Source: Candidatus Avispirillum sp. (GTDB taxonomy: Bacteria > Bacillota > Clostridia > Oscillospirales > CAG-272). From it: a stretch of DNA of 60,900 nucleotides. The notes beneath the pieces were generated by a model. That model ran no database searches and had not been told where the DNA came from. It saw nothing but the letters and a program-made list of their open reading frames with translations. Position 1 is the stretch's first letter. Each line of letters opens with the position of its first letter. The DNA is taken from assembly GCA_045545335.1 (NCBI GenBank), contig JAZQAS010000130.1, positions 1 through 60,900 of the forward strand, written 5' to 3'. This document shows, one piece after another, positions 23,997-59,054 of the stretch. Made by a program: the position numbers and the translations under genes.

Positions 23997-24054
23997 AGTG
24001 GCTCAATTGTTAAGATCATTCGTCTAATTTTGGTTTGACGGGGGAAGAGAAAAA

Positions 24055-24196: not shown

Positions 24197-24250
24197 TTGG
24201 GCACATAGTGCCCCACAAACCGTAATTTGATTACGTTTTGTTATTCTCCA

Positions 24251-28410: not shown

Positions 28411-28843
28411 AAAACGGTACGCAGGAAAATCGGAGTTATCCTTAGCGGAGAATTTTGAACTTTTTTAATTCTCGTTAAGAACCGGCATCTCATTTGTAAG
28501 TACAAATGCAGTAGGGCGGTAGCCCAAACCCACTAACAACAGAAAAGAGAAGATTCGTATATTGCAACGAGTCTTCTCTTTCTTTCTTGTCTGTTAAGTG
28601 ATATACTGACGTTCGTCAGCGTGATATTTTCTTTTGAAAATCCCTCGCCTATGGCGAGATATTTCAAAAAGAAAGTGATATTAAGCCCTAAGGGCTTAGT
28701 GATATTCTATTCGCCGAAAACTCGCGTAGCGAATATCACTCGGCGTAAGCCGAATATAACTGCGGAGCAATATAACTCGCCGTAGGCGAATAGAGTTGCG
28801 TGATACTCCGTTAAGAGTATCACGCTAAAGCGTACCGTTTTTT
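28411..28843 (-). repeat. Composite nested-hairpin intergenic element, copy B (inverted homolog of 60-455)
   Basis: The split stem is AAAACGGTACGC (28411-28422) and GCGTACCGTTTT (28830-28841). Inside are the tail at 28423-28545, an AGAGAAGA hairpin at 28546-28579, a GTGATAT/AATATCAC word array at 28594-28797, and a hairpin at 28798-28825. Confidence 0.8.
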
Positions 28844-29840: not shown

Positions 29841-30610
29841 ATTTTATATTTCAACCGCAGGTTGTCCGCGATCATGGCGATAAATTCGCTGTTGGTGGGC
29901 TTCCCGCGGTTGTTTTGTATAGTGTAGCCGAAATAAGAGTTGAGGGTGTCTATATCTCCGCGGTCCCAGGCCACCTCGATTGCGTGGCGGATAGCGCGCT
30001 CCACGCGTGAGGTGGTGGTTGAATATTTCTTTGCAACGGAGGGGTAGAGCACCTTTGTCACAGAGTTGATTATATCGCTGTCGCTGATGGTCATAAGAAT
30101 GGCGCATCTCAGATACTGATAGCCCTTTATGTGAGCGGGAACGCCTATCTGATGAATGATCTTCGTCACCTGAGCCTCAATATCGGGAGGAGCTGAGTTA
30201 ACGTTCCCCGCAGAAATGCTGCCCTCGGCGCGGCCGCGGTAGATAGAGATGATGTGATCCGCAAGGCTCTGATAGTCAAGGGGCTTGGGCAGGCAGAGAG
30301 CGGCGCCTGCGCGTGCGGCTTCAATAAATATGTTCTGATTTGTGATAAGTGAGGCGATAATAAATGCAGGTGCCTTGTCCTGACCGAAATCGCAGGAAAA
30401 GGTCTGCCTGATCAGGCCGATGCCGTCAAGCTTCGAGAGCCAGACGTCGGCAATAACGATATCGTGGTGGTTTCTTGTAATGCTTGTCAGCGCTTCTTCT
30501 CCGTTGGTAGCTTCATCAACGTAGCGGTGGCCTGCGCGAAGGAGGGCCTCCTTGCAGGCTTTTCTTGAGTCGGCGTTTTCGTCGGCTATAAGGATCTTGA
30601 TCTTCTCCAT
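29834..30610 (-). CDS. spo0A: Sporulation master regulator Spo0A
   Basis: It has a receiver domain ([16 protein letters not shown]) and a diagnostic C-terminal domain ([51 protein letters not shown]). Confidence 0.95.
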
Positions 30611-30774
30611 AATGTATCTCCATAGGTGGTAATATTTGGTAATTAGATATTACCATATTCTGGAAATAATTTCAAGTAAATTACCAATTTTTAACATTCA
30701 CAAAAATCCCTTCCAATAATTGGTAATTTATGACAAATATATGAAATAACGGTAAAAATACTGTCGTAATATGC

Positions 30775-31546: not shown

Positions 31547-32641
31547 ATGACAGAAAATAATGTAAATAAGGTAGACCTTCAGCTCTTCGGAGCAGGAGAT
31601 ACCGTTCATTCCACAGAGGCCTTCGTAAATGCAAACGACTCCGCAAAGAACGAGGCCTACGTGACAACTGCTAGTCAGGAGAGCGGCCTTGGCGCCGAGA
31701 TGAAGACCTTCTATGATAAGACTCTCATCGAGCTTGCAGGCCCCGCCCTCGTGTTCGATCAGTTTGCGCAGAAGCGTCCCATTCCCAAGAACGGCGGTAA
31801 GACCATTGAGTTCAGAAAGTTCAATGCTCTTCCCAAGGCTCTCACCCCCATCACCGAGGGCGTCACTCCCACAGCCTCCAAGCTCACCGTAGTTCCCGTA
31901 ACGGCAACCGTAGATCAGTACGGCGATTACGTAGAGCTCACGGATATGATCGAGCTCACAAGCGTGGATCCTCTGGTTGTGGAGGCAACAAAGCAGCTTG
32001 CAGATCAGGCGGGCAGAACTATTGATACGGTGGTCCGCAATCAGATCATGGGCGGCACAAACGTAAATTATTGCCCCCTCGTAGCCAATGACGGCACTGA
32101 GACTGAGATCACGTCCCGTAAGGCGCTCACCTCAGATTGCAAGCTCAGAGTGCGCGACGTGTTCCGCGCCGCAGCACAGCTCAAGGCAATGAACGCTCCC
32201 ACCATCGACGGCAGCTACGTTGCAGTCATCCACCCCTACGTAGCCTTTGACCTTATGCAGGATGCAAAGGGTCAGTGGCTCGATATTCAGAAGTATACCG
32301 ATCCCAAGAATATCCTCAAGGGCGAGATCGGAACTCTCGGCGGCGTGCGCTTCGTTCAGTCCTCCGAGGCTAAGATCTATACGGGAGACGAGGGCGGCAA
32401 GGACGGCGCGCCCGTGTTCTGCACTCTCTTTATCGGAGCCAATGCATACGGCTCCACCGATATTGCAGGCGGCGGCATTGAGCATATCGTAAAGCAGAAG
32501 GGTTACGGAAACGACCCCCTCAATCAGCGCTCAAGCGTGGGCTGGAAGGCAACTAAGGTAGCAGTTCGCCTCGTTGAAGAGTATATGCTTCGCGTTGAGT
32601 CCGGCTCCTCCTTCTCCGATACGTCCGTAGAGGCAAACTGA
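31547..32641 (+). CDS. Phage major capsid protein (HK97-fold type; resembles proteins annotated as N4-gp56-family MCP)
   Basis: 364 aa. It has an N-terminal DLQLFG motif common in Firmicute phage head proteins, plus KTIEFRKF, LTPITEGVTP, AVIHPYVAFDL and GGVRFVQS. This is recognition from memory, not a database search. Confidence 0.6.
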   Translation: MTENNVNKVDLQLFGAGDTVHSTEAFVNANDSAKNEAYVTTASQESGLGAEMKTFYDKTLIELAGPALVFDQFAQKRPIPKNGGKTIEFRKFNALPKALTPITEGVTPTASKLTVVPVTATVDQYGDYVELTDMIELTSVDPLVVEATKQLADQAGRTIDTVVRNQIMGGTNVNYCPLVANDGTETEITSRKALTSDCKLRVRDVFRAAAQLKAMNAPTIDGSYVAVIHPYVAFDLMQDAKGQWLDIQKYTDPKNILKGEIGTLGGVRFVQSSEAKIYTGDEGGKDGAPVFCTLFIGANAYGSTDIAGGGIEHIVKQKGYGNDPLNQRSSVGWKATKVAVRLVEEYMLRVESGSSFSDTSVEAN

Positions 32642-36100: not shown

Positions 36101-38317
36101 TTACGGATAAATACCGAGACGGCGCGAGCCGTGCTCGTAGAACTGAGTCATGGGGTTAACGTCATAGATGCATTCTGCGGGGAGCACGTAGGAGTCAACT
36201 GAGGAAATGGGAACGTTGTTTTCCTTTATGTAGTTGTACATCCAGGAGTATCTCTCGCAGTAGAGCCTGCGGTTACCGTTGTTCACGAACCATTCGGTGT
36301 GGAGAGAGGAGAGACCCATAAAGTCGCAGCTGACGATAATTGTGGAAATGCGTCTTCTCTGAGTAGCGTTATGTGCCTTGTTGTAGGCAGAGGTGAGAAG
36401 GCCTCTCATATATTCGTAGTTTTCTCCGAGATATTCGTAGGACATCATATCGCCGGGGCGGTCAAAGTTATTGATAAAGCAGGTACCGCACTGATCTCCC
36501 GCCTCAGTGCACATCTCAATGTATTCAAAGAGCTCGTCAACACCGTCGCCGTAGTAGAAGTAGAGGAACTCGCGAATGATATCGTTGTATTCCTCGTAGG
36601 TCATATCGGGGTTCCAGAGAAGCTTGGAATAAACGTATGCCTTCAGGGCCTCGAAGTTGTTGTCAGCTCCGCCGCCCTCGTAGTAGATACCGGTAACTCC
36701 GCATTCCTCAATGAGATACTTCGTGTTGTAGTAGAGGTTGGGAATGTTGGGGCACCAGGAGAGGTAGTAGTGATAGTTAACGGGGTATACCCAGAACCAT
36801 ATCTCAGCGCCCGTTTCGCGGCAGAGGTTGCCCCAGTAGGTGAGAGCCTCGATATCGTCGTCGTTCTTCATACCGTTGAGCTGGCCGCCCTTTTCGTAGC
36901 ACTCCTCCATACCGAGGATGTGGTTGTGGCAGCTGACTCCGCAGTAGAGGATAACAAGGTTGTCCTCAGGCTTGATGGTCTTGGGGAAGTCCTTTGCGTA
37001 AACGATACCGTAAAGGCGGATGCCGGGGTAATAGTCCTGAATGTCGATAACCGCACGGTTATAAAGGCTGAGGTAAAGACCGGAGTAGCCCTCGACCTTT
37101 GAGATCTTCGTGCAGTTGCGGCAGGTGCAGTAGTTTTGGTTGTCGCAGATGGAGAAGGAGAAAACGGTGAGCCCTTCCTTGTAGTGAAGGTCGTTGCCCC
37201 AGTCCATGGACATAAGGTTGCAGTTGAGCATTCCCTCGAAAAGGGTGTTGTAATCCTTGTTGCTTGTAGCGCAGGGCTGCCAGCTGTAGGGATCGGGGAA
37301 GGTGCCTGAGGCAAATCTTGCGGCGCGAATCTCAGCGTCGGTCATTCCCGTCGTATCCTCGGGAACCTTGCCTGTGCCCATCTTCCAGTATTCGTAGAAG
37401 GAGTGCGCGTTGCTGTAGAGGGGGCCCGTCAGCGCGCCGTATCTCATATCGTCGTAGGCGTAGAGCTGAGTGCCGTTGAGCTTGTGGGCGAAATAGTGCT
37501 GGAAGGCACCGTCGTTGCCGTAGGTCTGGCAGGAGTGGCGGAAGGTGAGACGGGGGCTGTATTCATAAAGGGTGCCCTCGGGAATATCCACGTATCTTGC
37601 CTTATAGAGATAGGTCTCCTCGTTTGAATAGAAGCGGAAGCCGAGATAGTTTTCAAGTATCTCAAAAACGGAGTACATAGTGCCGCGGTACGTACCGTAG
37701 ATAAAGAGGTCTCCGTCCTTGACCTCGTATTTGAGGCCGTCCGTTCCGTATTTCTGACCCTCCTCGGAGAAGAGGTCTATCTGGCGGATGCGGATCATTT
37801 TCTCAGTCGTCTTGTTATCCTCGCCGAAAACGATGGGAAGGTCGATGGCAGTAGCCTTCTCAACGTACTTTTTAAGGTTGAGCGCGGCAAAGTAAGAGTT
37901 GTCGTTGTCCGTTGCATCAGCGTTCAGAACGATAGAGTAGCTTGAAATGGGGTTGCCTCCGACGGTAAGGCTGTAGACCTGTACCTGTCTGCCGTTCACG
38001 GTTTCAAAATCAGCAGCAGTTTTTGCGCCCGAGAGGATGAGCTTTAAGGAATAGGAGTCCTTTGCGCCCGCGTCGCGGTCAGCGTCAAGGTCCGCCGCCT
38101 CAAGGTCTATCTCATATCCGTCAAGACCTGCAACGTGGGCCTTTAAGGAAAGAGCGTCCTTTCCGTCAACAGCTCCGTCGCCGTTCACGTCTCCAAGCTG
38201 AAAGCCCTCGTCGTAAACGAATTTCTGACTGAGCCTGAAATCGTAGAGAGCAAAAGCGGAAACGGTCATTGAAAGAAGCATGGTGACCGTGATAATTAAA
38301 GCAATTATCTTTTTCAT
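36101..38317 (-). CDS. Secreted dockerin-containing protein, DUF4838-like putative glycoside hydrolase
   Basis: It has a signal peptide and a two-segment dockerin (GDVNGDGAVDGKDALSLK; DLDADRDAGAKDSYSLK). A conserved Cys cluster FSICDNQNYCTCRNC is present. The DUF4838 assignment is from memory. Confidence 0.75.
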   Translation of the reverse strand: MKKIIALIITVTMLLSMTVSAFALYDFRLSQKFVYDEGFQLGDVNGDGAVDGKDALSLKAHVAGLDGYEIDLEAADLDADRDAGAKDSYSLKLILSGAKTAADFETVNGRQVQVYSLTVGGNPISSYSIVLNADATDNDNSYFAALNLKKYVEKATAIDLPIVFGEDNKTTEKMIRIRQIDLFSEEGQKYGTDGLKYEVKDGDLFIYGTYRGTMYSVFEILENYLGFRFYSNEETYLYKARYVDIPEGTLYEYSPRLTFRHSCQTYGNDGAFQHYFAHKLNGTQLYAYDDMRYGALTGPLYSNAHSFYEYWKMGTGKVPEDTTGMTDAEIRAARFASGTFPDPYSWQPCATSNKDYNTLFEGMLNCNLMSMDWGNDLHYKEGLTVFSFSICDNQNYCTCRNCTKISKVEGYSGLYLSLYNRAVIDIQDYYPGIRLYGIVYAKDFPKTIKPEDNLVILYCGVSCHNHILGMEECYEKGGQLNGMKNDDDIEALTYWGNLCRETGAEIWFWVYPVNYHYYLSWCPNIPNLYYNTKYLIEECGVTGIYYEGGGADNNFEALKAYVYSKLLWNPDMTYEEYNDIIREFLYFYYGDGVDELFEYIEMCTEAGDQCGTCFINNFDRPGDMMSYEYLGENYEYMRGLLTSAYNKAHNATQRRRISTIIVSCDFMGLSSLHTEWFVNNGNRRLYCERYSWMYNYIKENNVPISSVDSYVLPAECIYDVNPMTQFYEHGSRRLGIYP

Positions 38318-38528: not shown

Positions 38529-40739
38529 ATGAAAAGAATCATAGCGGCGGTCATATTTTCGGCAATGCTGTTCACCTCTCTTGCAGGTACGGTGTCTGCC
38601 CTTGATCTGCCATTTGTTCAGGATTTTGAAATGGACGAGACCTTCATCCTCGGCGACGTAAACGGCGATAAGTCGGTGGATGGCAAGGATGCTCTTTCCT
38701 TAAAGGCGTTCGTTGCAGGCCTTGAGGGCTATGAGGTGGAGCTTGATGCGGCAGACTTTGATGCTGATAGCGATGCAAGCGCAAAGGACTCCTATTCCTT
38801 AAAGCTCATCCTCTCAGGAGCTAAAACTGCCGCCGATTTTGAGAATGGCGAGCAGATATATAAGCTGACCATCGGCGGCAACGATATAAAGGAATATTGC
38901 GTGGTTCTCCCCGAGGGAACGAGCGAGGATTCAAATATTCAGTTTGCATATCTCAATCTTGTTCAGTATATCGAAAAGGCAACGGGCTATCGCATTCCCA
39001 TGTGCTACGGCGCCCCCACAACTGAGAAGGCCATATATTTCAATCATATAGACCTTTGGAGCGAGGAAGGTCAGCGCCTTGGCGTTGAGGGCCTGAGATA
39101 TGAGGTGCGTGACGGAAACCTTTGCGTTTGGGGAACCTATCGCGGCAATGCATACGCAGTATTTGATATTCTTGAAAAGTATATCGGTGTGCGCTTTTTG
39201 TCAAATACCGCTACCTTTATCTTTAAGTCAAGATGCGTGGATATCCCCGAGGGGCTTTTTGTTGAGTATATCCCTAAGATCACCTTCCGCTATGCAGGCC
39301 AGACCTACGGCGGTGGCGACAGCGTAAAATACCATTATTATCCCCATAAGCTGAACGGCTCTCAGCTTTATCAGTACGATTCTCCCTTCTACGGAACAAA
39401 AACGGGCCCCGAATTCATCAATGCCCATTCCTTCGGCTATTATTGGGCGATGGGAACGGGAACGATGCCCGATGAGAGCTACGGCACTCTCTCCGAGAGA
39501 TATCAGTACAAGCACGACTCAGGCGAGATCGTTGATGAATATAAGTGGAACCCCTGCGCGACTGATAAAAAGGTATACGATATCATCTTCTCGGGACTCA
39601 TAGATACCACCCTTATGGTTATGAGCTGGGGAAGAGTATACCGCTTTGAGGAGGACCTGAGCGCAATGTCCTTCTCCATTTGCGATAATCAGAATTATTG
39701 CAGCTGCCGCTACTGCGCAAAGACGGCTGTGAAAGAAAAGGAGGGCTATTCGGGCCTCTACGTGCAGATGACCAATAAGGCCTGCGATGACGTGCAGGCA
39801 TATTTCCCCGGCTGCAAGCTTTATATGATCCTCTACGATCATACCATCCCCGCCACCATCAAGCCCCACGATAAGATAATCCTTATGTATTGCGGAACGG
39901 GCTGTGATAATCATATCCTCGGTATGGAGGAGTGCTATGAGAAGGGCGGACAGCTCAATCATTCAAGCAATAAGGGAGATATAACGGCGCTTCCCGCCTG
40001 GGGCGAGCTTTGCCGCGAAACGGGAGCGGAGCTTTGGTTCTGGGTCTATGCGGTCACCTATCACTATTATATGATAGGCTGTCCCAATATCCCCAATATC
40101 TATTACAATCTCAAATGGATGATAGATAATGCAAACGTAACGGGCGTGTATTACGAGGGCGGCGGACGCACCTATAATTTCGAGACCTTGAAGGCTTACC
40201 TTGCAGTCAAGCTTATGTGGGAGCCTCATATGACCTACGATGAGTTCGTGGGGCACGCAAAGGAATATCTCTATATGTGGTATGGCGACGGCTATGAGGA
40301 GCTTTGGGAGTATATCCTTATGCAGACCGAAGCGGGAGATCAGTGCGGCACCTGCTTTATCAATAACTTCGACCGTCCCGGCGATATGTATTCCTACGAA
40401 TATATGGGCGAAAACTATGAGTATATGAGAGGCCTTCTCGTGTCGGCCTATGAGAAAACGAAGAATAACGCTCAGGAAAACAGGGTCAATACCCTCATCG
40501 TATCCTGCGACTTTATGGGCCTTTCCTCTCTCCATACGGATTGGTACTTAAACGGAGATACCGAATCAAGACAGCTTTATATGGAGCGCTACCTCTGGAT
40601 GCATACCTATATAAAGAACCATAACCTGAGAATATTCAGGGATAATACTTACCTGTTCCCCGAGACTGTTGATTATGAGACCAATCCCATGATCCAGTTC
40701 TACGAGCACGGCTCACGCCGTCTCGGTATTTATCCTTAA
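38529..40739 (+). CDS. Secreted dockerin-containing protein, DUF4838-like (paralog, divergent orientation)
   Basis: It is collinear with 36101-38317 over its full length and has the same Cys cluster (FSICDNQNYCSCRYC). The C-terminus is identical: QFYEHGSRRLGIYP. Confidence 0.75.
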   Translation: MKRIIAAVIFSAMLFTSLAGTVSALDLPFVQDFEMDETFILGDVNGDKSVDGKDALSLKAFVAGLEGYEVELDAADFDADSDASAKDSYSLKLILSGAKTAADFENGEQIYKLTIGGNDIKEYCVVLPEGTSEDSNIQFAYLNLVQYIEKATGYRIPMCYGAPTTEKAIYFNHIDLWSEEGQRLGVEGLRYEVRDGNLCVWGTYRGNAYAVFDILEKYIGVRFLSNTATFIFKSRCVDIPEGLFVEYIPKITFRYAGQTYGGGDSVKYHYYPHKLNGSQLYQYDSPFYGTKTGPEFINAHSFGYYWAMGTGTMPDESYGTLSERYQYKHDSGEIVDEYKWNPCATDKKVYDIIFSGLIDTTLMVMSWGRVYRFEEDLSAMSFSICDNQNYCSCRYCAKTAVKEKEGYSGLYVQMTNKACDDVQAYFPGCKLYMILYDHTIPATIKPHDKIILMYCGTGCDNHILGMEECYEKGGQLNHSSNKGDITALPAWGELCRETGAELWFWVYAVTYHYYMIGCPNIPNIYYNLKWMIDNANVTGVYYEGGGRTYNFETLKAYLAVKLMWEPHMTYDEFVGHAKEYLYMWYGDGYEELWEYILMQTEAGDQCGTCFINNFDRPGDMYSYEYMGENYEYMRGLLVSAYEKTKNNAQENRVNTLIVSCDFMGLSSLHTDWYLNGDTESRQLYMERYLWMHTYIKNHNLRIFRDNTYLFPETVDYETNPMIQFYEHGSRRLGIYP

Positions 40740-40763
40740 TAACAAAAGCCACCCGAAATAACA

Positions 40764-40796
40764 AAATCCACCCGAATTTTTTCGGGTGGATTTTTT
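40764..40796. terminator. Bidirectional terminator
   Basis: AAAATCCACCCGAA-tttt-TTCGGGTGGATTTT between convergent genes. Confidence 0.8.
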
Positions 40797-41436
40797 ATAG
40801 AGATAAATTTTTTATTTCAAATCCGTTCCAGGGAGAATCGGGAAGATCGGTAAAGGTCAGGCGCTTTTTTGTAAATGGATGGGTAAAGGCGAGAGAGAAG
40901 CAGTGGAGGCAAAGGGGCATATTGTCCCGTGAGCCGTATTTTCCGTCGCCGCAAAGAGGCATCCTTCTGCTTGCAAACTGAACTCTTATCTGATGGGTGC
41001 GCCCCGTGTGGAGAGTCACTCTGACGAGAGAGAGCCCGTCTTCGCTTTTCAGGGTCTCGTAGTCAAGCAGAGCCTCCTTAACGCCGTTTCTCTGTCTGTC
41101 AACGACGTAGGCCTTGTTCTTTTTCCTGTCGTGAAAGAGAAGGTCGCGCATCTCGCCCGCTCCCGCGTCGGGGGAGTGAACGATGGCGAGATACTGCTTT
41201 TTGCAGTCCTCTGCGCTGAGAGAGGCGCTGAGCTTTCCGGCCGCCTGAGAGGTTTTTGCATAGACCATAACGCCTGCCGTTGCCGTGTCAAGCCGATGGA
41301 CGCAGAAAACATCGCCGTGTCCCTCTTCTCTAAGGAGAGATATCATATCGGGTCTGCCCGATGGGTCCGCCTGAGAGGCAACTCCCGGGGGCTTTGAGGC
41401 AACGATGAGATATTTGTCTTCGTAAAGTATCTTCAT
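40795..41436 (-). CDS. RluA-family pseudouridine synthase (short form)
   Basis: The catalytic motif HRLDTATAGVMVYAKT is present. 213 aa. Confidence 0.8.
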   Translation of the reverse strand: MKILYEDKYLIVASKPPGVASQADPSGRPDMISLLREEGHGDVFCVHRLDTATAGVMVYAKTSQAAGKLSASLSAEDCKKQYLAIVHSPDAGAGEMRDLLFHDRKKNKAYVVDRQRNGVKEALLDYETLKSEDGLSLVRVTLHTGRTHQIRVQFASRRMPLCGDGKYGSRDNMPLCLHCFSLAFTHPFTKKRLTFTDLPDSPWNGFEIKNLSL

Positions 41437-46260: not shown

Positions 46261-46995
46261 ATGGAAAATAACGAAAATCAGTCAAGTCTGCAGGCCTTGG
46301 GCTTTGTCATTAGAAAAAGGCTCGTGTTTATATTCGCTATCGGACTTGCAGTAGCCCTTGTAGCGGCGCTTATAACCGTGTTTCTCATAAAGCCCGTATA
46401 TTCGTCAACTGCCAAGTTCTACGTAAATAATACGTCCGAGCAGTCGAGCAACGTATCCTCTCAGGATATGAGCGCTTCAAAAAGCCTTGCGGAATCCTCC
46501 ATCGTCATAGTAAGAAACAGCACCTCTCTTCTTGAGAGAGTGGCAGAGGCTTCGGGAGTGGAGATAACTGCGCAAAAGCTCAAGAGCTCCATCTCCGCAG
46601 GCACCTATTCGGGAACTGAGGCCTTCTATATAGCGGTAGACCATAACGACCCCGAAAAGGCGTATGCCCTTGCAAATGCATTTTATGAGATAATCCCCGA
46701 TGCTATCCCCGATATCATCAATAAGGGCGACGTATCTCAGATGGACCCTCCCAAAATGCCCGTAGAGCCCGATTCTCCCAGCCTCACTATCAATACCCTT
46801 GTGGGCGCGATCATCGGAATTGCCGTATCCTTCCTCGTGTTCTTCCTCATAGAGGTCCTTGATAATACCATCTATACGGAGGAGGACGTAAAGGATAAAT
46901 TCGGCTATCCCATAGTCGGCCTTATTCCCACCATCGTAACAGAGCAGCCTCAGAAGGCCTCTGCAAAGCTGAGAAGAGAAAGGAGCGCTAAATGA
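46261..46995 (+). CDS. Wzz/CpsC-type polysaccharide chain-length determinant (BY-kinase transmembrane modulator)
   Basis: It has two TM segments flanking a periplasmic-type domain. ATG 46261 follows AAAGGAGG, and the gene overlaps the kinase gene by ATGA. Confidence 0.8.
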   Translation: MENNENQSSLQALGFVIRKRLVFIFAIGLAVALVAALITVFLIKPVYSSTAKFYVNNTSEQSSNVSSQDMSASKSLAESSIVIVRNSTSLLERVAEASGVEITAQKLKSSISAGTYSGTEAFYIAVDHNDPEKAYALANAFYEIIPDAIPDIINKGDVSQMDPPKMPVEPDSPSLTINTLVGAIIGIAVSFLVFFLIEVLDNTIYTEEDVKDKFGYPIVGLIPTIVTEQPQKASAKLRRERSAK

Positions 46996-47792
46996 TGAAT
47001 AACGATATAAATAACGCATATAGCGGCAAGCTCCTTTCCGAAAACTCCTCATTTGCAATAAACGAAGCATTCAAGATGCTGAGAACCAACCTTTTCTATA
47101 CCGCAAAGGGAGAGAAGTGCCCCGTCTACGGCGTAACCAGCACCTTTGCTCATAGCGGTAAGAGCATCATAATGGCAAACCTTGCGGTTTCCTTTGCTCA
47201 GCTTGAGAAAAAGGTCCTGCTCATAGACTGCGACCTGAGAAGCTCCGTTATCCATAAGCTGTTCAACGTGGATAAGGCAGAGGGCATAAGCGAGCTTCTT
47301 GCCAGCGCAGACAGCTCTATTGATAAGTATATCAAGAAAACTCAGTATCCCAATCTTTCTCTTATAACGGCGGGCGGTATGCCCCCCAACCCCGCAGAGC
47401 TTCTTGCCAGCGCGAGAATGGGTAAGTTTATCGAGTTTATGAAGCAGCATTTCGACGTTATCTTCATAGACCTGCCCCCCGTAGGTATCGTAACGGATGC
47501 GGTGGTCATCACCGAGCACGTAACGGGATATCTCTACGTTGTAAGATCAAGACAGGACGATGCAAAGAGCCTGCGCAATTCTCTCGGAGCAATGGAGCAG
47601 ATGGATGCCAATATCATAGGCCTCGTGCTTAACGATGTGGATCCCAAGTCCTCAAAGTACGGCCGCTACGGAAAATACGGCAAGTACGGAAAATACGGCC
47701 GCTACGGTAAGTATGCGAAATACGGCTACGGATACGGCTACGGATATGGCTACGGCTACGGCCACCATACAAACGAAGATGAAACAGAATGA
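46992..47792 (+). CDS. CpsD/CapB-family bacterial tyrosine kinase with an unusually long Tyr-rich tail
   Basis: Walker A TFAHSGKS, A' LLIDCDLR and B VIFIDLPP are present. The C-terminus is YGRYGKYGKYGKYGRYGKYAKYGYGYGYGYGYG. Confidence 0.88.
   Translation: MMNNDINNAYSGKLLSENSSFAINEAFKMLRTNLFYTAKGEKCPVYGVTSTFAHSGKSIIMANLAVSFAQLEKKVLLIDCDLRSSVIHKLFNVDKAEGISELLASADSSIDKYIKKTQYPNLSLITAGGMPPNPAELLASARMGKFIEFMKQHFDVIFIDLPPVGIVTDAVVITEHVTGYLYVVRSRQDDAKSLRNSLGAMEQMDANIIGLVLNDVDPKSSKYGRYGKYGKYGKYGRYGKYAKYGYGYGYGYGYGYGHHTNEDETE
47655..47762 (+). repeat. In-frame tandem repeat (9-nt then 6-nt period) encoding (K/R-Y-G)n(Y-G)n
   Basis: It reads aagtacggc cgctacgga aaatacggc aagtacgga aaatacggc cgctacggt aagtatgcg aaatacggc, followed by tacgga/tacggc units. 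Confidence 0.9.
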
Positions 47793-53656: not shown

Positions 53657-54625
53657 ATGAAACTTTGCGTACTTGCAAACCTTTATGCAAACCTCAGCCT
53701 TGAGGATACCCTTGCAAAGCTCAAGGGCCTCGGCGTTCAGGCTGTAGAGATCGGCGCAGGCGGCTTCCCCGGTAAGGCTCATTGCGACCCCGAAAAGCTC
53801 CTTGCAGACGAGGCAGCCCTCAACGAGTGGCTCGGCCTTTTCAAGAAGTATGATATCGAGCTTGCAGCACTTGCTTGCCACGGTAACCCCGTGCATCCCA
53901 ATAAGGAGATCGCAGAGTCCTTCCATAAGGATTTCGTAAACGCAGTTCTCCTTGCTGAGAAGGTAGGCGTTGATACCGTTATCACATTCTCCGGCTGTCC
54001 CGGCGGCTCTCCCGAGGATAAAACACCTAACTGGGCAACCTGCGCGTGGCCCGATGACTTCCTCGGAGTACTTGATTATCAGTGGAACCAGGTCCTCATT
54101 CCTTACTGGAAGGAAACAGCAGCATTTGCAGAGGCTCACGGCGTAACAAAGATCGCGTTTGAGATGCACCCCGGCTTCTGTGTATATAACCCCGAAACAC
54201 TTATGAAGCTCAGAAATGCCGTAGGCCCCGTTCTCGGCGCGAACTTCGACCCCTCTCACCTTGTATGGCAGGGCATCGACCCCGTAGCGGCGATCCGTTA
54301 CCTTGGCGACGCTATCTATCATTTCCATGCAAAGGATACAAAGATCGACGATATCAATACAAGCGTAAACGGTGTTCTTGATACAAAGCACTACGGCGAC
54401 GAGCTCAACCGTGCATGGGTATTCCGCGCAGTAGGCTACGGCCACGACCAGAAGTGGTGGAAGGATATCTGCTCCGCACTCCGTCTTGTAGGATACGATA
54501 AGGTAATGTCCATCGAGCACGAGGATAGCCTTATGTCCATCGACGAGGGACTCGCGAAGGCAATCGAGTGCCTCGCACCCTGCATCATCCATGAACCCAA
54601 GCCCACAACAATGGCATGGGCGTGA
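53657..54625 (+). CDS. Sugar phosphate isomerase/epimerase (xylose-isomerase-like TIM barrel)
   Basis: 322 aa. It shows the AP-endonuclease-2/TIM pattern (FEMHPG, SIEHED). Confidence 0.85.
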   Translation: MKLCVLANLYANLSLEDTLAKLKGLGVQAVEIGAGGFPGKAHCDPEKLLADEAALNEWLGLFKKYDIELAALACHGNPVHPNKEIAESFHKDFVNAVLLAEKVGVDTVITFSGCPGGSPEDKTPNWATCAWPDDFLGVLDYQWNQVLIPYWKETAAFAEAHGVTKIAFEMHPGFCVYNPETLMKLRNAVGPVLGANFDPSHLVWQGIDPVAAIRYLGDAIYHFHAKDTKIDDINTSVNGVLDTKHYGDELNRAWVFRAVGYGHDQKWWKDICSALRLVGYDKVMSIEHEDSLMSIDEGLAKAIECLAPCIIHEPKPTTMAWA

Positions 54626-54654
54626 AAAAATCTCCCCGAAAGGGGAGATTTTTT
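54625..54654 (+). terminator. Rho-independent terminator
   Basis: AAAAAATCTCCCC-gaaa-GGGGAGATTTTTT. Confidence 0.85.
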
Positions 54655-54862
54655 CAGCTAAATTCGCCGACCATAGGGGTCCCCGACGGCAACGGAGTTG
54701 TCGTGGGGAATGGTCTGCGAGCTAAATTGACCTACGGTCAGCTAAATTCCTGCGGAGCTAAATTGGCTACGCCAGCTAAGGCGAATTTAATTTAGCTTCA
54801 CGAAGTGAAATTTAGCTGCGAAGCTATTTAGCTACGGAGCGAAGCGGAGTTATTTAGCTAAA
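54655..54862 (+). repeat. Word-hairpin array, AGCTAAATT dialect (two-armed)
   Basis: The left arm has AGCTAAATT four times plus a truncated AGCTAA. The right arm has AATTTAGCT/TATTTAGCT four times. The hairpins are GACC-tac-GGTC, CC-tgc-GG, GGC-tac-GCC and TCAC-gaa-GTGA. The first unit carries a larger nested palindrome at 54668-54714. Confidence 0.85.
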
Positions 54863-54950
54863 AGGAAAGACTTGAAGTATACGCCACGGTTACAGATAAA
54901 AATATCAATTATTAAAAAAATAAGTTATTCATTTTTTCTTTGTCGGTCTT

Positions 54951-55053
54951 TTTTTAGCTAAATTTGCCTTTTAGCTGGGCGAAGCCCAATTTAGCTTGCA
55001 TAGCAAATTTAGCTTGGCTTGCCGAATTTAGCTCGCGATAGCGTATTTAGCTG
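54951..55053 (+). repeat. Word-hairpin array, AGCTAAATT dialect (second block, right-arm type)
   Basis: It has a TTTAGCTAAATTT centre followed by AATTTAGCT three times and TATTTAGCT once. The hairpins are GGGC-gaa-GCCC, TGC-ata-GCA and CGC-gata-GCG. Confidence 0.8.
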
Positions 55054-55057
55054 AAAG

Positions 55058-55081
55058 AAAAGCACCCATCGGGTGCTTTTT
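55058..55081. terminator. Terminator-type hairpin (GCACCCATCGGGTGC; identical stem also at 57333-57357)
   Basis: GAAAAGCACCC-atc-GGGTGCTTTTT. No gene ends immediately upstream; it separates two arrays. Confidence 0.6.
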
Positions 55082-55225
55082 CAGTTATGATTGCCTTCGG
55101 CAAACGATGATTGCTACGCAAACGATGATTGCCTGCGGCAAGCTTTATAGGCAATCATATCATCGTTTTCCCGAAGGGAAATCATCGTGACCGAAGGTCT
55201 CATCACGCGCGAAGCGCTCATAACT
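55082..55225 (+). repeat. Word-hairpin array, CGATGAT dialect (copy 2)
   Basis: It reads CAGTTATGATTGCC-ttc-GGCAA ACGATGATTGC-tac-GCAA ACGATGATTGCC-tgc-GGCAA .. GGCAATCATATCATCG TTCCC-gaa-GGGAA ATCATCGT GACC-gaa-GGTC TCATCAC GCGC-gaa-GCGC TCATAAC. Its last 8 nt supply the final codons and stop of the SLOG gene. Confidence 0.85.
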
Positions 55226-55634
55226 CTATAACCCTTTTTCCTTTTCTTAGGGCAAGCTGCTGAAATTTATACGAGCCGCCTGCAGTATGCTTCACGTAGG
55301 TTATCACCGTATCAGCTTGGCTTATCATCCATTCATTTCTTTTTGTAATGGTAAATCTTTTTGGTACTGTTTCAAGCCCTTCGGGGAAAATGGTGTCTTT
55401 TCCTCCTTTTTCGGGGTATGTGGGTAAATAAGCTAAAACTTTGTAACAAACGATATGAGGATATATTGACCTTAAAGCAGTCAAAACCTCCCAAACAATA
55501 TTGTCGAAATTTCCTTGAGTTCCAACAAAAAACTTTGTAGCGTTTTCATTTTCTATCAGTTGAGTCAAGCATTCAGTCAGCTTTGGGCGCACTTCATTAT
55601 TTGCATACCTATGGCCGAAAAACGTACATAACAT
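55218..55634 (-). CDS. SLOG-superfamily protein (DUF1273/YpsA-like), possibly C-terminally truncated
   Basis: 138 aa with the pattern CTFFGHR..FFVGTQGNFDNIVWEVL..ADTVITYV..GGSY. The gene is AT-rich and the family assignment is from memory. Confidence 0.6.
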   Translation of the reverse strand: MLCTFFGHRYANNEVRPKLTECLTQLIENENATKFFVGTQGNFDNIVWEVLTALRSIYPHIVCYKVLAYLPTYPEKGGKDTIFPEGLETVPKRFTITKRNEWMISQADTVITYVKHTAGGSYKFQQLALRKGKRVIEL

Positions 55635-55769
55635 AATATCACCAAAAATTTTCCAATATATCCAATATAGATAATTAATATCTACTCTGTTAATTATTAT
55701 ATCTAAAAAAAGGATAAAATCAATATAACAGATATTAATTATCTAAAACGGATATTGTTGGAGAAGTGT

Positions 55770-56033
55770 ATGGCGAAGAGTATGTTCACAATAAAGGGAA
55801 ATATATGCTCAGAAAGAGTGAGGCTCGGAAGAGCATTGCAGAAGCCACCCATGACACAGGACGATCTTGCTCGTAAGATACAGCTTATGGGAATGGATAT
55901 AACTCCTCTGATAATTTCAAGAATTGAGAAAAATCAGCGTCACGTGTGCGATGCAGAGCTGAGAATGATAGCAAAAGCTCTCGGAGTAACGATGGATTGG
56001 CTTTGCGCTGATGAAGATATAAATATGGATTGA
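55770..56033 (+). CDS. XRE-family helix-turn-helix transcriptional regulator
   Basis: The HTH motif is MTQDDLARKIQLMGMDITPLIISRIEKNQR. ATG 55770 follows GGAG; the ORF track starts at TTG 55755. It is divergent from the SLOG gene. Confidence 0.75.
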   Translation: MAKSMFTIKGNICSERVRLGRALQKPPMTQDDLARKIQLMGMDITPLIISRIEKNQRHVCDAELRMIAKALGVTMDWLCADEDINMD

Positions 56034-56060
56034 AAAAAGCTCCCTTCGTGGAGCTTTTTT
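56033..56060 (+). terminator. Rho-independent terminator
   Basis: AAAAAAGCTCC-cttcgt-GGAGCTTTTTT. Confidence 0.8.
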
Positions 56061-56204
56061 CAGTTATGATTGCCTTTGGAAACGATAATTGGCTTCGCCA
56101 AACGATGATTGCCTTCGGCAAGTTAAAGGCAATCATATCATCGTTTTCCCGAAGGGAAATCATCGTGACCGAAGGTCTCATCACGCGCGAAGCACTCATA
56201 ACTG
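56061..56204 (+). repeat. Word-hairpin array, CGATGAT dialect (copy 3; direct repeat of 55082-55225)
   Basis: The right arm (77 nt, AGGCAATCATATCATCG..CTCATAACT) differs from copy 2 at one position by hand alignment. The left arm is more diverged. Confidence 0.85.
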
Positions 56205-56296
56205 AAATCATTTATTGGTGATACTTTACAAAAATGTTGATATGTGTTATACTATACTCAAACAAATAGAAGTGATAGCCCAAAGGAGGGGAAACC

Positions 56297-57211
56297 ATGA
56301 AACATTTCAATTTCGGACAGTGGAGCTTTAAGGTAGACGTAGAAAAAACGAAAGAATATTATAAAGAATATAATCGCCCGAAAACAGATACGGACAGAAA
56401 TTTCTATGAGAATTACAAAGACTTTTCTGCAGAAGAAAAGGAGTTTTTTGATTCTTTGGGTATAGATGTATTTTCCTGCCTTAAAGAAACTATCTGTATA
56501 AAAACAAATGAAACTGAAATACTGAACTGTAAAGTATATTGTCCCGTTTGTGCTGAATCTGTAAGTATTCCCGATATTTATTCTCTCCCAGTCGAAGAGA
56601 TAATAGACTGTCATATTAAAGGAATTCTCGACGAGCAGGATGAAAGGGTAGGAAGATTCAGAATTGATCTTTCGGGTAACGGCCGTTGTCCGTGCTTTTT
56701 ACCCGAAGGTTTTATTTGTTTTGTGTTATATTGTGATGAGATAAAATGGCTGCTTCCCGGCGAACCTGTGAAGTCAGACTATGATGAGATGCATAAACAG
56801 CATTATGAGGAAGCCTTTTCAAGGCTCGGTATTAATGCAACACCTTTAGATTGCGATACCGTAGCTCAACTCAAAACGGAATGGATGAATGCATTGTCCA
56901 AAAAATCAAAGAACCCAAACAAAGCAAAGAGATTAAGCGAAGATTGTATTTGGCATATTTTCAGCTTTGGACTTCTTAGATGTGATGATGAAGAAGTTGC
57001 GTCGAGGCAGTATGATAATCAGAACAAAAACAGTTGTATTTTTTTGAGTAATATAGACGACGTAGGCTACAGAATTGAAAATGCAGATGCGTTAAGTGCC
57101 GAAATACTTGATCAGTTCATAGACGTTACGGTAACTGCATCTGACTTTTCGTGGACTTACGTGAAAACACACGAATGTGATCTCGGTCCATACTTTTGTA
57201 AAATAGATTAG
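56297..57211 (+). CDS. Hypothetical Cys-rich protein (two-domain; the C-terminal half resembles small immunity/DUF-type proteins)
   Basis: 304 aa with a strong RBS AAAGGAGGGG. The gene is AT-rich and I cannot confidently name a family. Confidence 0.55.
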   Translation: MKHFNFGQWSFKVDVEKTKEYYKEYNRPKTDTDRNFYENYKDFSAEEKEFFDSLGIDVFSCLKETICIKTNETEILNCKVYCPVCAESVSIPDIYSLPVEEIIDCHIKGILDEQDERVGRFRIDLSGNGRCPCFLPEGFICFVLYCDEIKWLLPGEPVKSDYDEMHKQHYEEAFSRLGINATPLDCDTVAQLKTEWMNALSKKSKNPNKAKRLSEDCIWHIFSFGLLRCDDEEVASRQYDNQNKNSCIFLSNIDDVGYRIENADALSAEILDQFIDVTVTASDFSWTYVKTHECDLGPYFCKID

Positions 57212-57222
57212 AAAAGAATATT

Positions 57223-57252
57223 GAAATTTGTTTTAAAACAAATTTCGGTTTT
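57223..57252 (+). terminator. Palindromic terminator hairpin
   Basis: GAAATTTGTTTTAAAACAAATTTC followed by GGTTTT. Confidence 0.6.
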
Positions 57253-57332
57253 AACTGCCGAAGGCAATATAACTATGCGAAGCATAATATAACTGCGAAG
57301 CAATATAACTCACCTTCAGGTGAATATAACTG
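57253..57332 (-). repeat. Word-hairpin array, ATATCAC dialect, one-armed (GTTATATT words only)
   Basis: The minus strand reads CAG TTATATTCACC-tgaa-GGTGA GTTATATTGC-ttc-GCA GTTATATTATGC-ttc-GCATA GTTATATTGCC-ttc-GGCA. It follows the terminator of the minus-strand gene. Confidence 0.75.
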
Positions 57333-57357
57333 AAAAAGCACCCATCGGGTGCTTTTT
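57333..57357 (-). terminator. Rho-independent terminator of the 564-aa membrane protein gene
   Basis: AAAAAGCACCC-atc-GGGTGCTTTTT, 2 nt after the stop codon. Confidence 0.8.
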
Positions 57358-57359
57358 CT

Positions 57360-59054
57360 TTATCCAACCTTTTCACACTTTACGATATTACCTTCCGAGT
57401 GGCTGATCTCGACTACGTCGCCCTCGCTTAGGAGAAGCATCCTTTCGTGGTCGCAGGCCTTTGCCTTGAATATATTGTCCTCGGTGTCGATAACGTAGAT
57501 GTACGTGTTTCCGTCAATGTCGATGTACTTTACAGAGGCAATCGTAACCGTCACGTTTGTTAGCTTTTCAGGCTCCTTGCTTTCGTCATCTCTGTCGATT
57601 CCGAGAACGTCCTTGTATTTTTCAATACATTCGGCCTGCGTGGCAGCAGTTGTAACTATATTGTACTGCTCAACGTTAACCGTAGCGTAAAGCTTAACAA
57701 GGCCGCCGGAGTCCTTCAGCACCATAATGTAGGTAGGATGGCCTTCAATGTTGATAAGGGAAGGGAATGAGGCCTGATAACCCTTTTCCTGAACCTCGCC
57801 CTCAGCCGCCGCCATAGCGGATTTTTCGTCAGCTCCCGATACTGAGTAGTATCGGCTTTCACCCGTGCGCTCGTTTGCAAGAAGGAAGCCGATGTTTGAG
57901 CTGTCGCCGTTAACGGAGGTTATTCCCGTGTAGATCCAGATGTCTCCGTCCTTGGCAATATATCCGTAATCGGAAACGGGAGTAGAGTCAGAGCTTTCCT
58001 CTTCCTCTTCGCTTTCATAGTAGGTGGTGACCTGCTTGCAGCCCTTCTTTGCGAAGATGCTGTTGAAATAGCCGTTTTGGTACATACCGTGCCAGTTGTA
58101 CTGTTCGCATAATAGGTCGCCGTAGAAAACAACGTCTATCCAGTTGGGAATATCCTCAAGATCAAGTCTTTCAGTCTCACCGCTGACAGGGTCAAGAACG
58201 ATACAGCCCGTAACTGTCTTTCCGCCGAAAAGGGGAATAGTCTTATCAATAACGGAGGCTATATAGTAGGGCTTTCCCTCCTCGTCTATCTCAAAGTGGA
58301 GATTTTCAAAAAGAACCGTGGGATACTTTGTGCGAAGATATCTGTATGCATCCTCATTAAAGAATGCAGAGGGAGAATAGATCATACCGTCGCACTTGTT
58401 AAAGGTAGCAGACATTGAAACGGGGTCAACCGTAACAAAACCGCCGATGCCGCGGTCGCGGTTGTTTATCCATTTGAAAAAGCCTGCATACTCAAGAGCA
58501 GCTACCTTGACAGGGCGGCCCTTAAGATCTATCTGAGTATATTCCTCGGAAACGTCATACTGGCTCACAACGTCGGAGAGCGAGCCGATCTCTCGGTCGC
58601 CAAGCATCTGCGCAGATGAAGTATCCATAAGAGCGATGGAATCCGTGCCCACAGACTGCGCGATATCCTTGGTGAAATCTCCCTCGGATACCTTCATTAT
58701 CTCTGCATATGCGGTTGCATTGAAGACCGTTGTTGAAAAAACGAATAAGAGAAGTATAAGAGATGCAATAGCAATGGGAACGATATGATATTTTGCGGAG
58801 AAGATAAGGTCTGCCGCCTCAGAAGCATAATGGGCTCTTTTCTTTTTCTTGCGATCGGCAGCCTTCTTGTAATCTCTGAGACCGATTATAAGACGTGATA
58901 CGAGGGTGAAGGCCAAAGCTGAAAGGTTGATCAGCACCCAAAGTCCGATGCTCTTCGCGTTTATGGCAGGGCAGAAAAGATATCCGCCTATAAGCAAAAC
59001 GGCAACAGCGGCCACAGCACCCATAATATAGGGAAAATATTTTGCCTTTTTCAT
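57360..59054 (-). CDS. Membrane-anchored extracytoplasmic protein, conserved hypothetical
   Basis: 564 aa with three N-terminal TM segments followed by a large soluble domain. An RBS GGAG is present. Confidence 0.7.
   Translation of the reverse strand: MKKAKYFPYIMGAVAAVAVLLIGGYLFCPAINAKSIGLWVLINLSALAFTLVSRLIIGLRDYKKAADRKKKKRAHYASEAADLIFSAKYHIVPIAIASLILLLFVFSTTVFNATAYAEIMKVSEGDFTKDIAQSVGTDSIALMDTSSAQMLGDREIGSLSDVVSQYDVSEEYTQIDLKGRPVKVAALEYAGFFKWINNRDRGIGGFVTVDPVSMSATFNKCDGMIYSPSAFFNEDAYRYLRTKYPTVLFENLHFEIDEEGKPYYIASVIDKTIPLFGGKTVTGCIVLDPVSGETERLDLEDIPNWIDVVFYGDLLCEQYNWHGMYQNGYFNSIFAKKGCKQVTTYYESEEEEESSDSTPVSDYGYIAKDGDIWIYTGITSVNGDSSNIGFLLANERTGESRYYSVSGADEKSAMAAAEGEVQEKGYQASFPSLINIEGHPTYIMVLKDSGGLVKLYATVNVEQYNIVTTAATQAECIEKYKDVLGIDRDDESKEPEKLTNVTVTIASVKYIDIDGNTYIYVIDTEDNIFKAKACDHERMLLLSEGDVVEISHSEGNIVKCEKVG

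Follow-up and report, generated by a model that had tools for sequence, protein, structure and literature searches.

We analysed the intergenic tract at positions 54655–55225 of a 60,900-nt stretch of DNA (contig JAZQAS010000130.1, assembly GCA_045545335.1; hereafter the window), reading 54400–55500 directly and locating landmarks by script. The tract lies between the terminator of a xylose-isomerase-like gene and a convergent gene on the minus strand (55218–55634), and it is a cluster of three copies (elements A, B and C) of a repeat that is modular, does not code for protein and occurs many times in its host, an uncultured bacterium of the gut Clostridia/Oscillospiraceae. The repeating unit consists of a long hairpin, usually the intrinsic terminator of the upstream gene with its T-run, followed immediately by CAG and a first word (W1) and then by two to four modules, each comprising a GC-rich mini-hairpin (stem of 2–7 bp, mostly with a 3-nt loop) and an AU-rich word of 8–10 nt. 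Full elements carry a second, inverted unit, so that the words of the two arms are complementary. The tract contains no credible open reading frame (ORF), as an initial annotation had stated; the only ORFs that overlap the arrays encode 59 and 44 amino acids.

Three modular elements behind terminator-type hairpins

The initial annotation had described the tract as built entirely from two back-to-back arrays of constant words and mini-hairpins. The grammar itself was borne out: 14 of the 16 short inter-word spacers in the tract are full-length perfect hairpins, the words flip to their reverse complement, different sets of words (dialects) stand next to each other, and the same organization recurs elsewhere in the window. 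However, the tract is not made entirely of arrays, as it includes an AT-rich spacer (54860–54955) and a terminator-type hairpin (55054–55081), and it holds three discrete elements rather than two arrays, with B truncated and in the opposite orientation. The words are constant only approximately, as W1 differs from the inner words and the right-arm words of the C family vary (AATCATCGT, TCATCAC and TCATAACT). The first spacer of A is a compound hairpin of 55 nt.

Element A begins at the base directly after the end of the isomerase terminator (54654), with no gap. The hairpin of this terminator is symmetric, such that it could terminate transcription on either strand. The left arm of A consists of W1 (CAGCTAAATT), the compound hairpin (54665–54719) and three word and mini-hairpin units in the order AGCTAAATT-gacctacggtc-AGCTAAATT-cctgcgg-AGCTAAATT-ggctacgcc. 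It is followed by a centre (AGCTAAGGCGAATTTAATTTAGCT, 54774–54797) and by a right arm with four reverse-complement words, tcacgaagtga-AATTTAGCT-gcgaagc-TATTTAGCT-...-TATTTAGCT. The spacer between A and B shows weak complementarity between its two ends. Element B, read on the minus strand, opens with CAGCTAAATA, which adjoins the T-run of the 55054–55081 hairpin (T2), and contains four mini-hairpins and a centre-like AGCTAAAAGGCAAATTTAGCT. T2 is flanked by B on one side and by C on the other and is their common anchor. The left arm of C has three hairpins and reads CAGTTATGATT (W1)-gccttcggca-AACGATGATT-gctacgca-AACGATGATT-gcctgcggca; its centre, AGCTTTATAGGCAATCATATCATCGTT at 55141–55167, is read as AGCTTTATA-GGC-AATCATATCATCGTT; and its right arm, again with three hairpins, reads ttcccgaaggga-AATCATCGT-gaccgaaggtc-TCATCAC-gcgcgaagcgc-TCATAACT. 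The stop codon of the convergent gene lies inside this last word; the SLOG label given to that gene initially is weak (YpsA, 21 bits against a cut-off of 27.7 bits). Compound hairpins occupy two mini-hairpin positions, the one in A and another at 28626–28675 (~45 nt) in element E3 of the window, and neither has a second copy in any sequence compared. Because the L002 copy of A has a hairpin of only 9 nt at the first of these positions, single hairpins can evidently be enlarged or replaced.

The words, spacers and junctions all departed strongly from chance expectation. All 13 exact matches to AGCTAAAT in the window fall inside 54656–55052, compared with 3.1 expected, and none of 100 shuffles reached 13. 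On the plus strand, A has four forward copies of these words followed by four in reverse complement, and B has a single forward copy followed by four in reverse complement. The ACGATGATT/AATCATCGT words at 55104–55188 occur again at 24091–24197 and 56082–56166, and GTGATATT occurs 17 times (2.1 expected), with clusters at 163–228, 10581–10730 and 28621–28739. Among the unique spacers from 14 elements, 46 of 53 are perfect hairpins, compared with 6.6 expected and a maximum of 15 in 2,000 spacer shuffles. The junction TTTTTCAGYTA is present four times (0.04 expected), always at the start of an element (54650, 55077 and 56056, and 57337 on the minus strand), in agreement with the earlier claim that arrays start directly after a terminator-type hairpin through a T-run and CAG. 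In about 20 of 24 independent elements, W1 has an anchor hairpin within 0–8 nt. A clean T-run is present in about half of these hairpins, and the others (those of E1, E2, E3 and several seeds of the RNA family discussed below) run straight into the U-rich W1; the H0 hairpins of E1, E2, E3 and E4 all lack a clean T-run. A terminator scan identified 54631–54646 on both strands and 57358–57332 on the minus strand, and the hairpins at 55054–55081 and 56033–56060 were called terminator-type from their sequence.

The elements are also strongly structured, with fold z-scores of −4.4 to −5.8 relative to shuffles on both strands, whether folded as RNA or as DNA. Both of the alternative folds envisaged initially can form, and the global branched fold, in which words pair with reverse words and the mini-hairpins become side branches, exceeds a chain of local hairpins in stability by 10–27 kcal/mol. 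In an alignment of the five members of the C family, 97.2% of pair cells are paired and two pairs are altered on both sides (GCGC/GCGC to GCAC/GTGC, and GACC/GGTC to GGC/GCC), which is modest evidence of covariation given the depth of five members. A MAFFT alignment of the A-dialect arms was not used because its register slipped on the repeated words.

Nine elements lie within 61 kb (Table 1). All are intergenic, nearly all begin at a hairpin that follows a gene, and their orientations are mixed (four on the plus strand and three on the minus strand). Relative to C, C′ (56061–56204) is 90.7% identical and E4 (24054–24199) is 90.8% identical; E4 lies downstream of an ABC-2 permease gene (24251–25027, minus strand). 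E3 is a paralogue of E1, with 87% identity over ~270 nt that include both flanking hairpins, and the arms of E1 are built on GTGATATT-type words. C′ has a terminal inverted repeat, CAGTTATGA...TCATAACTG.

Table 1. Positions of the elements and of the hairpins that adjoin them in the window
Feature	Position	Strand	Description
Isomerase terminator hairpin	54625–54654	+	A6-TCTCCCC-GAAA-GGGGAGA-T6; xylose-isomerase-like TIM-barrel gene
Element A	54655–54859	+	AGCTAAATT dialect, full two-armed form
AT-rich spacer	54860–54955	no strand	96 nt, off-grammar, no second copy in any sequence compared
Element B	54956–55053	-	AGCTAAATT dialect, truncated, without distal arm
Hairpin T2	55054–55081	no strand	28 nt, AAAGAAAA-GCACCC-ATC-GGGTGC-TTTTT; bidirectional terminator-type
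Element C	55082–55225	+	ACGATGATT dialect, full form
T1′ hairpin and element C′	T1′ 56033–56060, C′ 56061–56204	+	ACGATGATT dialect
Half element E9	57257–57332	-	after T2 copy 57333–57357; word AGTTATATT; Gut-1 match of 51.3 bits
Composite element E1	75–321	+	H0 hairpin 75–104; two arms 105–274; flanking terminator-type hairpin 290–321
Element E2	10531–10731	+	H0 hairpin 10531–10559, then two arms; after [FeFe]-hydrogenase gene
Composite element E3	28546–28825	-	flanking hairpin 28546–28579; arms 28597–28798; H0 28798–28825
Element E4	24054–24213	-	ACGATGATT dialect, inverted; H0 hairpin 24199–24213

Gut-1 RNA and the shared design

An Rfam scan of the window at gathering thresholds (50 bits for this family) returned Gut-1 RNA (RF01706) at 10559–10628 on the plus strand (54.3 bits, in E2) and at 57262–57332 on the minus strand (51.3 bits, in E9). 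A scan by E-value added sub-threshold Gut-1 matches at 104–174 (plus, 47.3 bits), 28728–28798 (minus, 45.2 bits), 192–275 (minus, 42.7 bits) and 10673–10747 (minus, 26.5 bits). Because the last two correspond to the right arms of E1 and E2, read from the other strand, the full element consists of two Gut-1-like units arranged tail to tail. Gut-1 was described as a probable non-coding RNA in human-gut environmental sequence, with no sequenced organism, and was graded 'Y' for RNA (Weinberg et al. 2010, PMC2864571); Rfam types it as 'Gene; sRNA'. In the literature searched, we found Gut-1 or RF01706 mentioned nowhere besides that paper, with no mechanism or function reported. The initial annotation could not match the arrays to CRISPR, REP/BIME, ERIC, BOX or RUP. 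This held by sequence, but the third dialect that it described is Gut-1, so a named family does exist, albeit one with no established mechanism. The subfamily with GUGAUAUU/GUGAAAU words is Rfam Gut-1, which represents one arm of one dialect.

The published seed alignment (Stockholm format with flanks, PMC2864571) provides additional evidence of a larger design. Among the seeds examined in it, 7 of 11 showed the complete design in their flanks: a terminator or long hairpin, (UUUUU)CAG with UUAUAUU and CGCC, three hairpins, a centre and an inverted arm. In these seeds, the centre reads GCCUGCGGCAGUUU..GGCGAAUAUAAUAUCAC and is followed by three to four AUAUCAC words parted by hairpins. Since the full design is visible in the flanks of these seeds, Rfam models one arm only.

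We then compared the tract with the Gut-1 model, in which four conserved AU-rich linkers alternate with three GC-rich hairpins that have CUUCG-type loops. Elements A, B and C show this alternation, with three to four units per arm and loops of TTC, TAC and TGC. The tract does not contain the linker consensus GUGAAAU/GUGAUAUU; its words are AGCUAAAUU and ACGAUGAUU, and the only sequence common to W1 of the tract and the Gut-1 linker is a 3′ AUU and a 5′ CAG. The context of the linkers is nevertheless shared by A and C, both of which have a hairpin or terminator, CA(G) with W1 and (C)GCC, an inverted arm, and a centre that can pair with the start. W1 starts with CAG and ends with ATT, after which comes (C)GCC (CAGCTAAATT-CGCC in A and CAGTTATGATT-GCC in C), and the last left hairpin is GCC-TNC-GGC. 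The centres follow one rule, namely a degenerate AG(Y)TTWAWA word, GGC(G), AAT with 3 nt, and a full reverse word, as in GGCG-AATTTA-ATTTAGCT (A) and GGC-AATCAT-ATCATCG (C), and also in AATATA-ATATCAC and AATTTC-ATTTCAC.

The start and the centre of the elements vary together. In 14 distinct sequence versions, the 5′ start, which comprises the tail of W1 and the beginning of hairpin 1, matches the centre as its complement at a mean of 9.8 of 11 positions, compared with 7.05 for permuted partners, and 0 of 10,000 permutations reached 9.8. These start/centre pairs include TTCTATTCGCC/GGCGAATAGAA, ATGATTGCC/GGCAATCAT, AAATTCGCC/GGCGAATTT, GAAATAAATC/GATTTATTTC and GAAATCCACC/GGTGGATTTC. As the design is the same point by point, we regarded A and C as dialects that share the Gut-1 design in a sister relationship but fall outside the Rfam family as currently defined, and we consider the elements of the tract very probably to be a Gut-1-type repeat. 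Like Gut-1, they place 'CA' and a word right after a hairpin or terminator and have gut Clostridia as hosts, and the model recognises four other elements of the window: two of them exceed the gathering score, and two (plus the opposite-strand arms) fall below it. By contrast, the Rfam entry describes an sRNA gene of three hairpins and one arm, without a terminator anchor, a second arm, multicopy polymorphism or dialects.

Turnover and distribution

Related loci and contigs (numbered with the prefix L) were compared with the window; 80 of these related loci total 1.1 Mb. The isomerase protein is 99% identical in L001, a goat-cecum Clostridia metagenome-assembled genome (MAG; JAFQDC010000103.1), and 97% identical in L002, an Oscillospiraceae MAG, and dozens of further relatives at 67–89% occur in gut Clostridia MAGs. 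In the window, the isomerase terminator is followed by A, the spacer, B, T2 and C. In L002, it is followed by A, inside which the contig ends; the first hairpin of this copy has 9 nt compared with 55 nt in the window, and other hairpins differ by paired substitutions (tcacgaagtga to gcacgaagtgc, and ggctacgcc to gggcttcgccc). In L001, it is followed by C only, with one word and hairpin unit more than in the window, and the L001 terminator is nearly identical to the window hairpin that precedes C′. The orthologous isomerase terminators of L001 and L002 retain the stem through compensatory changes. L003 and L005, in which the protein is 89% and 82% identical, have a plain unrelated terminator and no element.

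A similar exchange was observed after a helix-turn-helix (HTH) gene, which is followed by T1′ and C′ in the window and by T2 and an A-type element in L001. This A-type element is 94% identical to A of the window, lies at a non-orthologous site and has only two left words. Copies of T2 are present at 57333–57357 and at two places in L001, each time adjoining an element of a different dialect; four different arms adjoin T2 hairpins (B, C, E9 and the L001 A-type copy), and both relative orientations occur. Truncated copies (E9, B and L315) retain the terminator-side arm. Comparison of these loci indicates that terminator-plus-element cassettes have been copied or swapped between sites at gene 3′ ends, that units have been lost or gained between directly repeated words, and that stems have been altered by paired substitutions. 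The words themselves are identical within an element and unchanged in unrelated contigs with different hairpins.

Between the direct copies C and C′ (55218–56033) lie the weak YpsA/SLOG-like gene (minus strand) and an HTH_3 gene (plus strand). This module is 80.6% identical to L001, compared with 92–95% for the flanking genes, and on this basis looks like an exchangeable cassette bounded by repeats. A link of the gene pair to a defence system was considered and set aside, as PADLOC returned only weak generic HTH matches.

Assemblies made independently from other samples (L001/L408, L406, L407 and L409) contain the same elements, and A is also found in L002 at the same site; the elements are therefore not the assembly artefacts that had been raised as a possibility. 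Two contig boundaries fall inside elements, namely the end of L002 (5756) in an A-type copy and the start of L409 (1–145) in a C-type copy, as expected if the repeats break assemblies. We scanned the 80 loci with word-independent methods (k-mer periodicity, chains of words and hairpins, and T-run with CAG and hairpins) and found elements in four of them (L001, L002, L046 and L062), compared with nine in the 61-kb window. The element of L046 is full and uses the canonical word GTGAAAT, whereas the word of L062 is ATGAAATC.

Elements also occur in viral contigs of IMG/VR, in which two-word patterns were mostly chance matches or tandem coding repeats and true elements came from filtered three-word patterns. 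The element of L295 lies ~100 nt upstream of a large-terminase gene, that of L399 begins at the stop codon of a portal gene, and that of L205 adjoins a major-head gene. In L414 and L420 the element is of the A dialect, with the words and centre of A in the window and with all four left hairpins different; the L414 element lies beside tRNA genes, and L414 is probably host DNA. The C dialect was not found in the viral contigs scanned. A metagenome scan with the 23-nt centre of the C family gave a single match, L201, in which the copy follows directly after a stop codon, with no separate terminator. BLASTN of 54620–55240 in distant mode against 72,556 plasmids and 50,697 phage records returned no match.

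A strain similar to L001 (L406) has two further repeat features. A 940-nt intergenic region contains, at 16900–17600, a cluster of GTAG-headed REP-like hairpins (gtagggacagRcgtcctcgactgtcc and gtaggggagtgccttggtgctccc), which is a second, different repeat family of the same lineage. Additionally, an insert of 275 bp (7447–7723) with a direct repeat of 34 bp (tcgggaatatctgacaagcgcgaacaaaaagaga) at its borders separates the GFO/IDH/MocA and isomerase genes and is absent from the window (53571).

The window is otherwise ordinary chromosome; it contains an [FeFe]-hydrogenase operon and genes for MgsA, RecD2, Spo0A and dockerin proteins, as well as metK accompanied by a SAM riboswitch. Directly downstream of E2 is a gene (10767–11126, plus strand) whose product belongs to the 23S rRNA intervening-sequence protein family. 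The SAM-I riboswitch (RF00162, 48.1 bits; 20204–20291, minus strand) is upstream of an AI-2E-family transporter gene (18707–20107, minus) and metK (17536–18705, minus). Three copies of TTGGTAAT/ATTACCAA in both orientations (30636–30728) are candidate operator sites upstream of spo0A (29834–30610, minus), and an ORF at 31547–32641 (plus) has Phage_capsid_4 and Phage_capsid_3 (phage-capsid/encapsulin-type) domains in otherwise chromosomal surroundings. Two divergent paralogous genes (36101–38317, minus, and 38529–40739, plus) each encode a dockerin and DUF4838 protein, and at 40749–40800 the sequence CCACCCGAA is directly repeated, with a third, inverted copy that forms a terminator-type hairpin with the second. 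Tyr/Gly-rich codon repeats (YGKYG-like; 47640–47790) form the C terminus of ORF 46992–47792, the L406 orthologue of which carries the annotation CbiA/ParA/AAA_31 and has the Wzz and CpsB genes on either side; the repeats fit the tyrosine cluster of a bacterial tyrosine kinase (BY-kinase).

Candidate roles and origins of the elements

The reading towards which we lean, with slightly more confidence than doubt, is that of a modular, terminator-anchored interspersed repeat, REP/BIME- or BOX-like in kind, that would act as a barrier at RNA 3′ ends. RNA that continues past the terminator, which in a full element could enter from either direction, would form a series of stable hairpins or else one long hairpin with branches, and the folded RNA could back up termination, block 3′-exonucleases and insulate the neighbour, such as the convergent gene at 55218. 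REP/BIME sequences, which are found in enterobacteria and pseudomonads, are thought to stabilise upstream mRNA and to attenuate read-through. The elements resemble them in being extragenic, multicopy palindromic mosaics, with inverted palindromes and linkers, that lie at gene 3′ ends and show lineage-specific bursts. They differ in host (Firmicutes), in having variable palindromes of 7–17 nt and constant linkers, and in lacking the GTAG-headed 20–40-nt palindrome; no Y1-transposase domain of the RAYT kind was detected among the window ORFs scanned. The BOX element of Streptococcus pneumoniae has the layout boxA-boxB(n)-boxC and no coding capacity. Compared by description only, BOX is likewise modular and intergenic, with a variable number of internal modules and complementary ends that fold the whole element into a long hairpin; however, its modules measure 45–59 bp, compared with the 16–20-bp word and hairpin units here, and it is not anchored to terminators.

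The barrier role was suggested by position and analogy and is much less certain than the identity of the repeat, and several observations weigh against it. The arms lie beyond the canonical terminator and hence would be transcribed only upon read-through, and folding energy did not differ between the strands. The Gut-1 model, run on 54500–57500 at E ≤ 10, found no match besides 57262–57332, leaving A, B and C unseen. Moreover, paired changes in short DNA palindromes can stem from template-switch correction, with no selection on RNA. A purely structural barrier also leaves the constancy of the words unexplained; possible explanations are that each word has multiple pairing partners, such that single changes are penalised, or that the words have a sequence-specific reader. 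Finally, the loops differ between the strands. On the terminator-sense strand, loops of the proximal arm are T-N-C (TTC 11, TAC 5, TGC 3 and TCC 3 of 28) and those of the distal arm are G-N-A or GNRA (GAA 8, GTA, GCA and GTAA), so that for the proximal arm the antisense strand carries C-GNA-G. Hairpins of this class, such as d(GCGAAGC), are unusually stable DNA mini-hairpins, and the asymmetry together with C-GNA-G hints at a DNA-level role. The three to four cases of G-U versus A-C mismatches all favour the strand opposite the terminator sense and are too few for a strand call.

A DNA-level role would fit the rival explanation that the elements are non-autonomous mobile DNA, similar to MITEs or to PATEs (IS200/IS605 derivatives), which are moved in trans. 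We consider this unlikely. The mover would be a transposase, HUH enzyme or reverse transcriptase that senses the 3′ edge of the terminator hairpin, with one enzyme per dialect; the words would serve as subterminal sites for binding, directly repeated in each arm and inverted from one arm to the other, like those at Tn7 or Mu ends; and the hairpins would act in single-stranded DNA. Consistent with mobility, the T-run/CAG junction is exact, one orthologous terminator carries A in the window and L002 and C in L001, near-identical copies occupy non-orthologous sites, and truncated copies keep the terminator-side arm. The density of elements is burst-like in one lineage and patchy elsewhere, some elements lie in phage genomes, and words, in contrast to hairpins, are conserved across contigs, with loops that fit the C-GNA-G class on one strand. 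Terminal inverted repeats (CAGTTATGA...TCATAACTG and CAGCTAAAT...ATTTAGCTG) point in the same direction. The CAG...CTG inverted repeat of 8–9 nt, found in C′ and across A to B, is no more than the word, and other copies lack it or have an imperfect version.

Other observations argue against mobility. There was no target-site duplication at the junctions inspected, which have a T-run on the left and unrelated sequences on the right. A Pfam scan of the 32 larger ORFs of the window revealed no gene for a transposase, a reverse transcriptase or an HUH enzyme. No longer parent element was found, the mixed orientations oppose insertion tied to a replication strand, and the terminator and arm often shift together as a cassette, which is equally compatible with recombination. 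Among specific mechanisms, IS200/IS605-like insertion tied to one replication strand is disfavoured by the presence of both orientations within 61 kb, and the TA duplication of IS630/mariner-type elements is absent from the junctions. Class C group II introns of bacteria recognise the hairpin of an intrinsic terminator and insert, in sense orientation, at the end of its T-run. Their likeness to the elements is in placement only, as they are ~2 kb long and have a reverse transcriptase and GUGYG 5′ ends, none of which is present here. Integron attC sites are also imperfect palindromes at gene 3′ ends that are recognised by structure and combine variable sequence with short conserved end boxes; they were rejected because, by inspection, R boxes (GTTRRRY/RYYYAAC) are absent at the ends of the elements, and because there is no integrase and no cassette array. 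The likeness of the GTGATATT word to the omega-repressor heptad (WATCACW) was judged coincidental because the other dialects lack the heptad.

The elements could instead be stand-alone genes for structured sRNAs, perhaps on the strand that ends at the bidirectional terminator, which we regard as distinctly unlikely. The single-stranded words would then be multivalent sites for a protein or RNA, as in a sponge or scaffold, or sticky ends for pairing between RNA arms, and the layout of words between hairpins does resemble CsrB/RsmZ-type sponges. The Rfam class and the 'Y' rating (PMC2864571) favour this view, as do the paired changes that preserve hairpins and the stricter conservation of words than of hairpin sequences across contigs. 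A-runs and T-runs flank most anchor hairpins, so element-side transcripts could end there. However, a promoter scan around the elements gave background numbers, with no convincing promoter adjoining any element, and hence does not support independent transcription. One genome contains several unrelated words, and the presence of a word and its complement in each element would mask the sites. Furthermore, presence varies between close strains, most relatives have no elements and the neighbouring genes are unrelated.

It is very unlikely that the arrays are a neutral by-product, with palindromes made or perfected by template switching at terminator hairpins and local slippage between words. Correction of near-palindromes can mimic compensatory change, unit number varies in whole word and hairpin steps, and hairpins can grow (55 nt in A compared with 9 nt in L002, and 45 nt in E3), all of which speak for this explanation. 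It cannot, by contrast, explain by local generation the recurrence of the design, the words and some hairpins (ATGCTTCGCAT) in ruminant MAGs, phage contigs and the human-gut seeds examined, the 87–91% identical paralogues tens of kb apart, or the start-centre covariation over 14 versions. A CRISPR-like array, a coding region or an assembly artefact can be set aside with near certainty: the likeness is a superficial alternation of constant and variable segments, the repeats are 8–10 nt and in both orientations with self-complementary 7–17-mers as spacers, whereas CRISPR arrays have direct repeats of 23–50 nt and unique, non-palindromic spacers of similar length, usually near cas genes; the window ORFs scanned yielded no Cas domain, the best Rfam CRISPR repeat scored at most 21.5 bits against a gathering score of 45, no ORF exceeds 59 amino acids, and the same elements recur in independent assemblies.

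A broader possibility, which we hold to be unlikely, is that Gut-1 is the tip of a hitherto unrecognised superfamily whose members seek out terminators in gut Clostridia and in the phages of these bacteria, the word of each dialect being a specificity code for a matching trans-acting partner. Such a partner could be a family-specific transposase, a single-stranded DNA enzyme, a reverse transcriptase or an RNA-binding protein, and the mini-hairpins would be fast-evolving structural spacers.

The repeat is not a new class, but the comparison makes an orphan motif a definable repeat family. These findings give context to the orphan Gut-1, as one arm of a two-armed, terminator-anchored, multicopy repeat with several word dialects, and they assign the Gut-1-type repeat to a host lineage of uncultured Oscillospiraceae-like Clostridia in ruminant and human guts, with copies in phages. 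Because Rfam-style models miss the sister dialects completely, the abundance of the class in gut metagenomes is underestimated, and because contigs break inside the repeats, they are a practical cause of fragmented metagenome assemblies. Their strain-level variation could make them useful as typing markers. If the cassettes truly move, transcription terminators would be spreading as part of a repeat, and if the superfamily exists, its members would be mobile 'portable terminators' or word-addressed multivalent RNAs rather than passive repeats.

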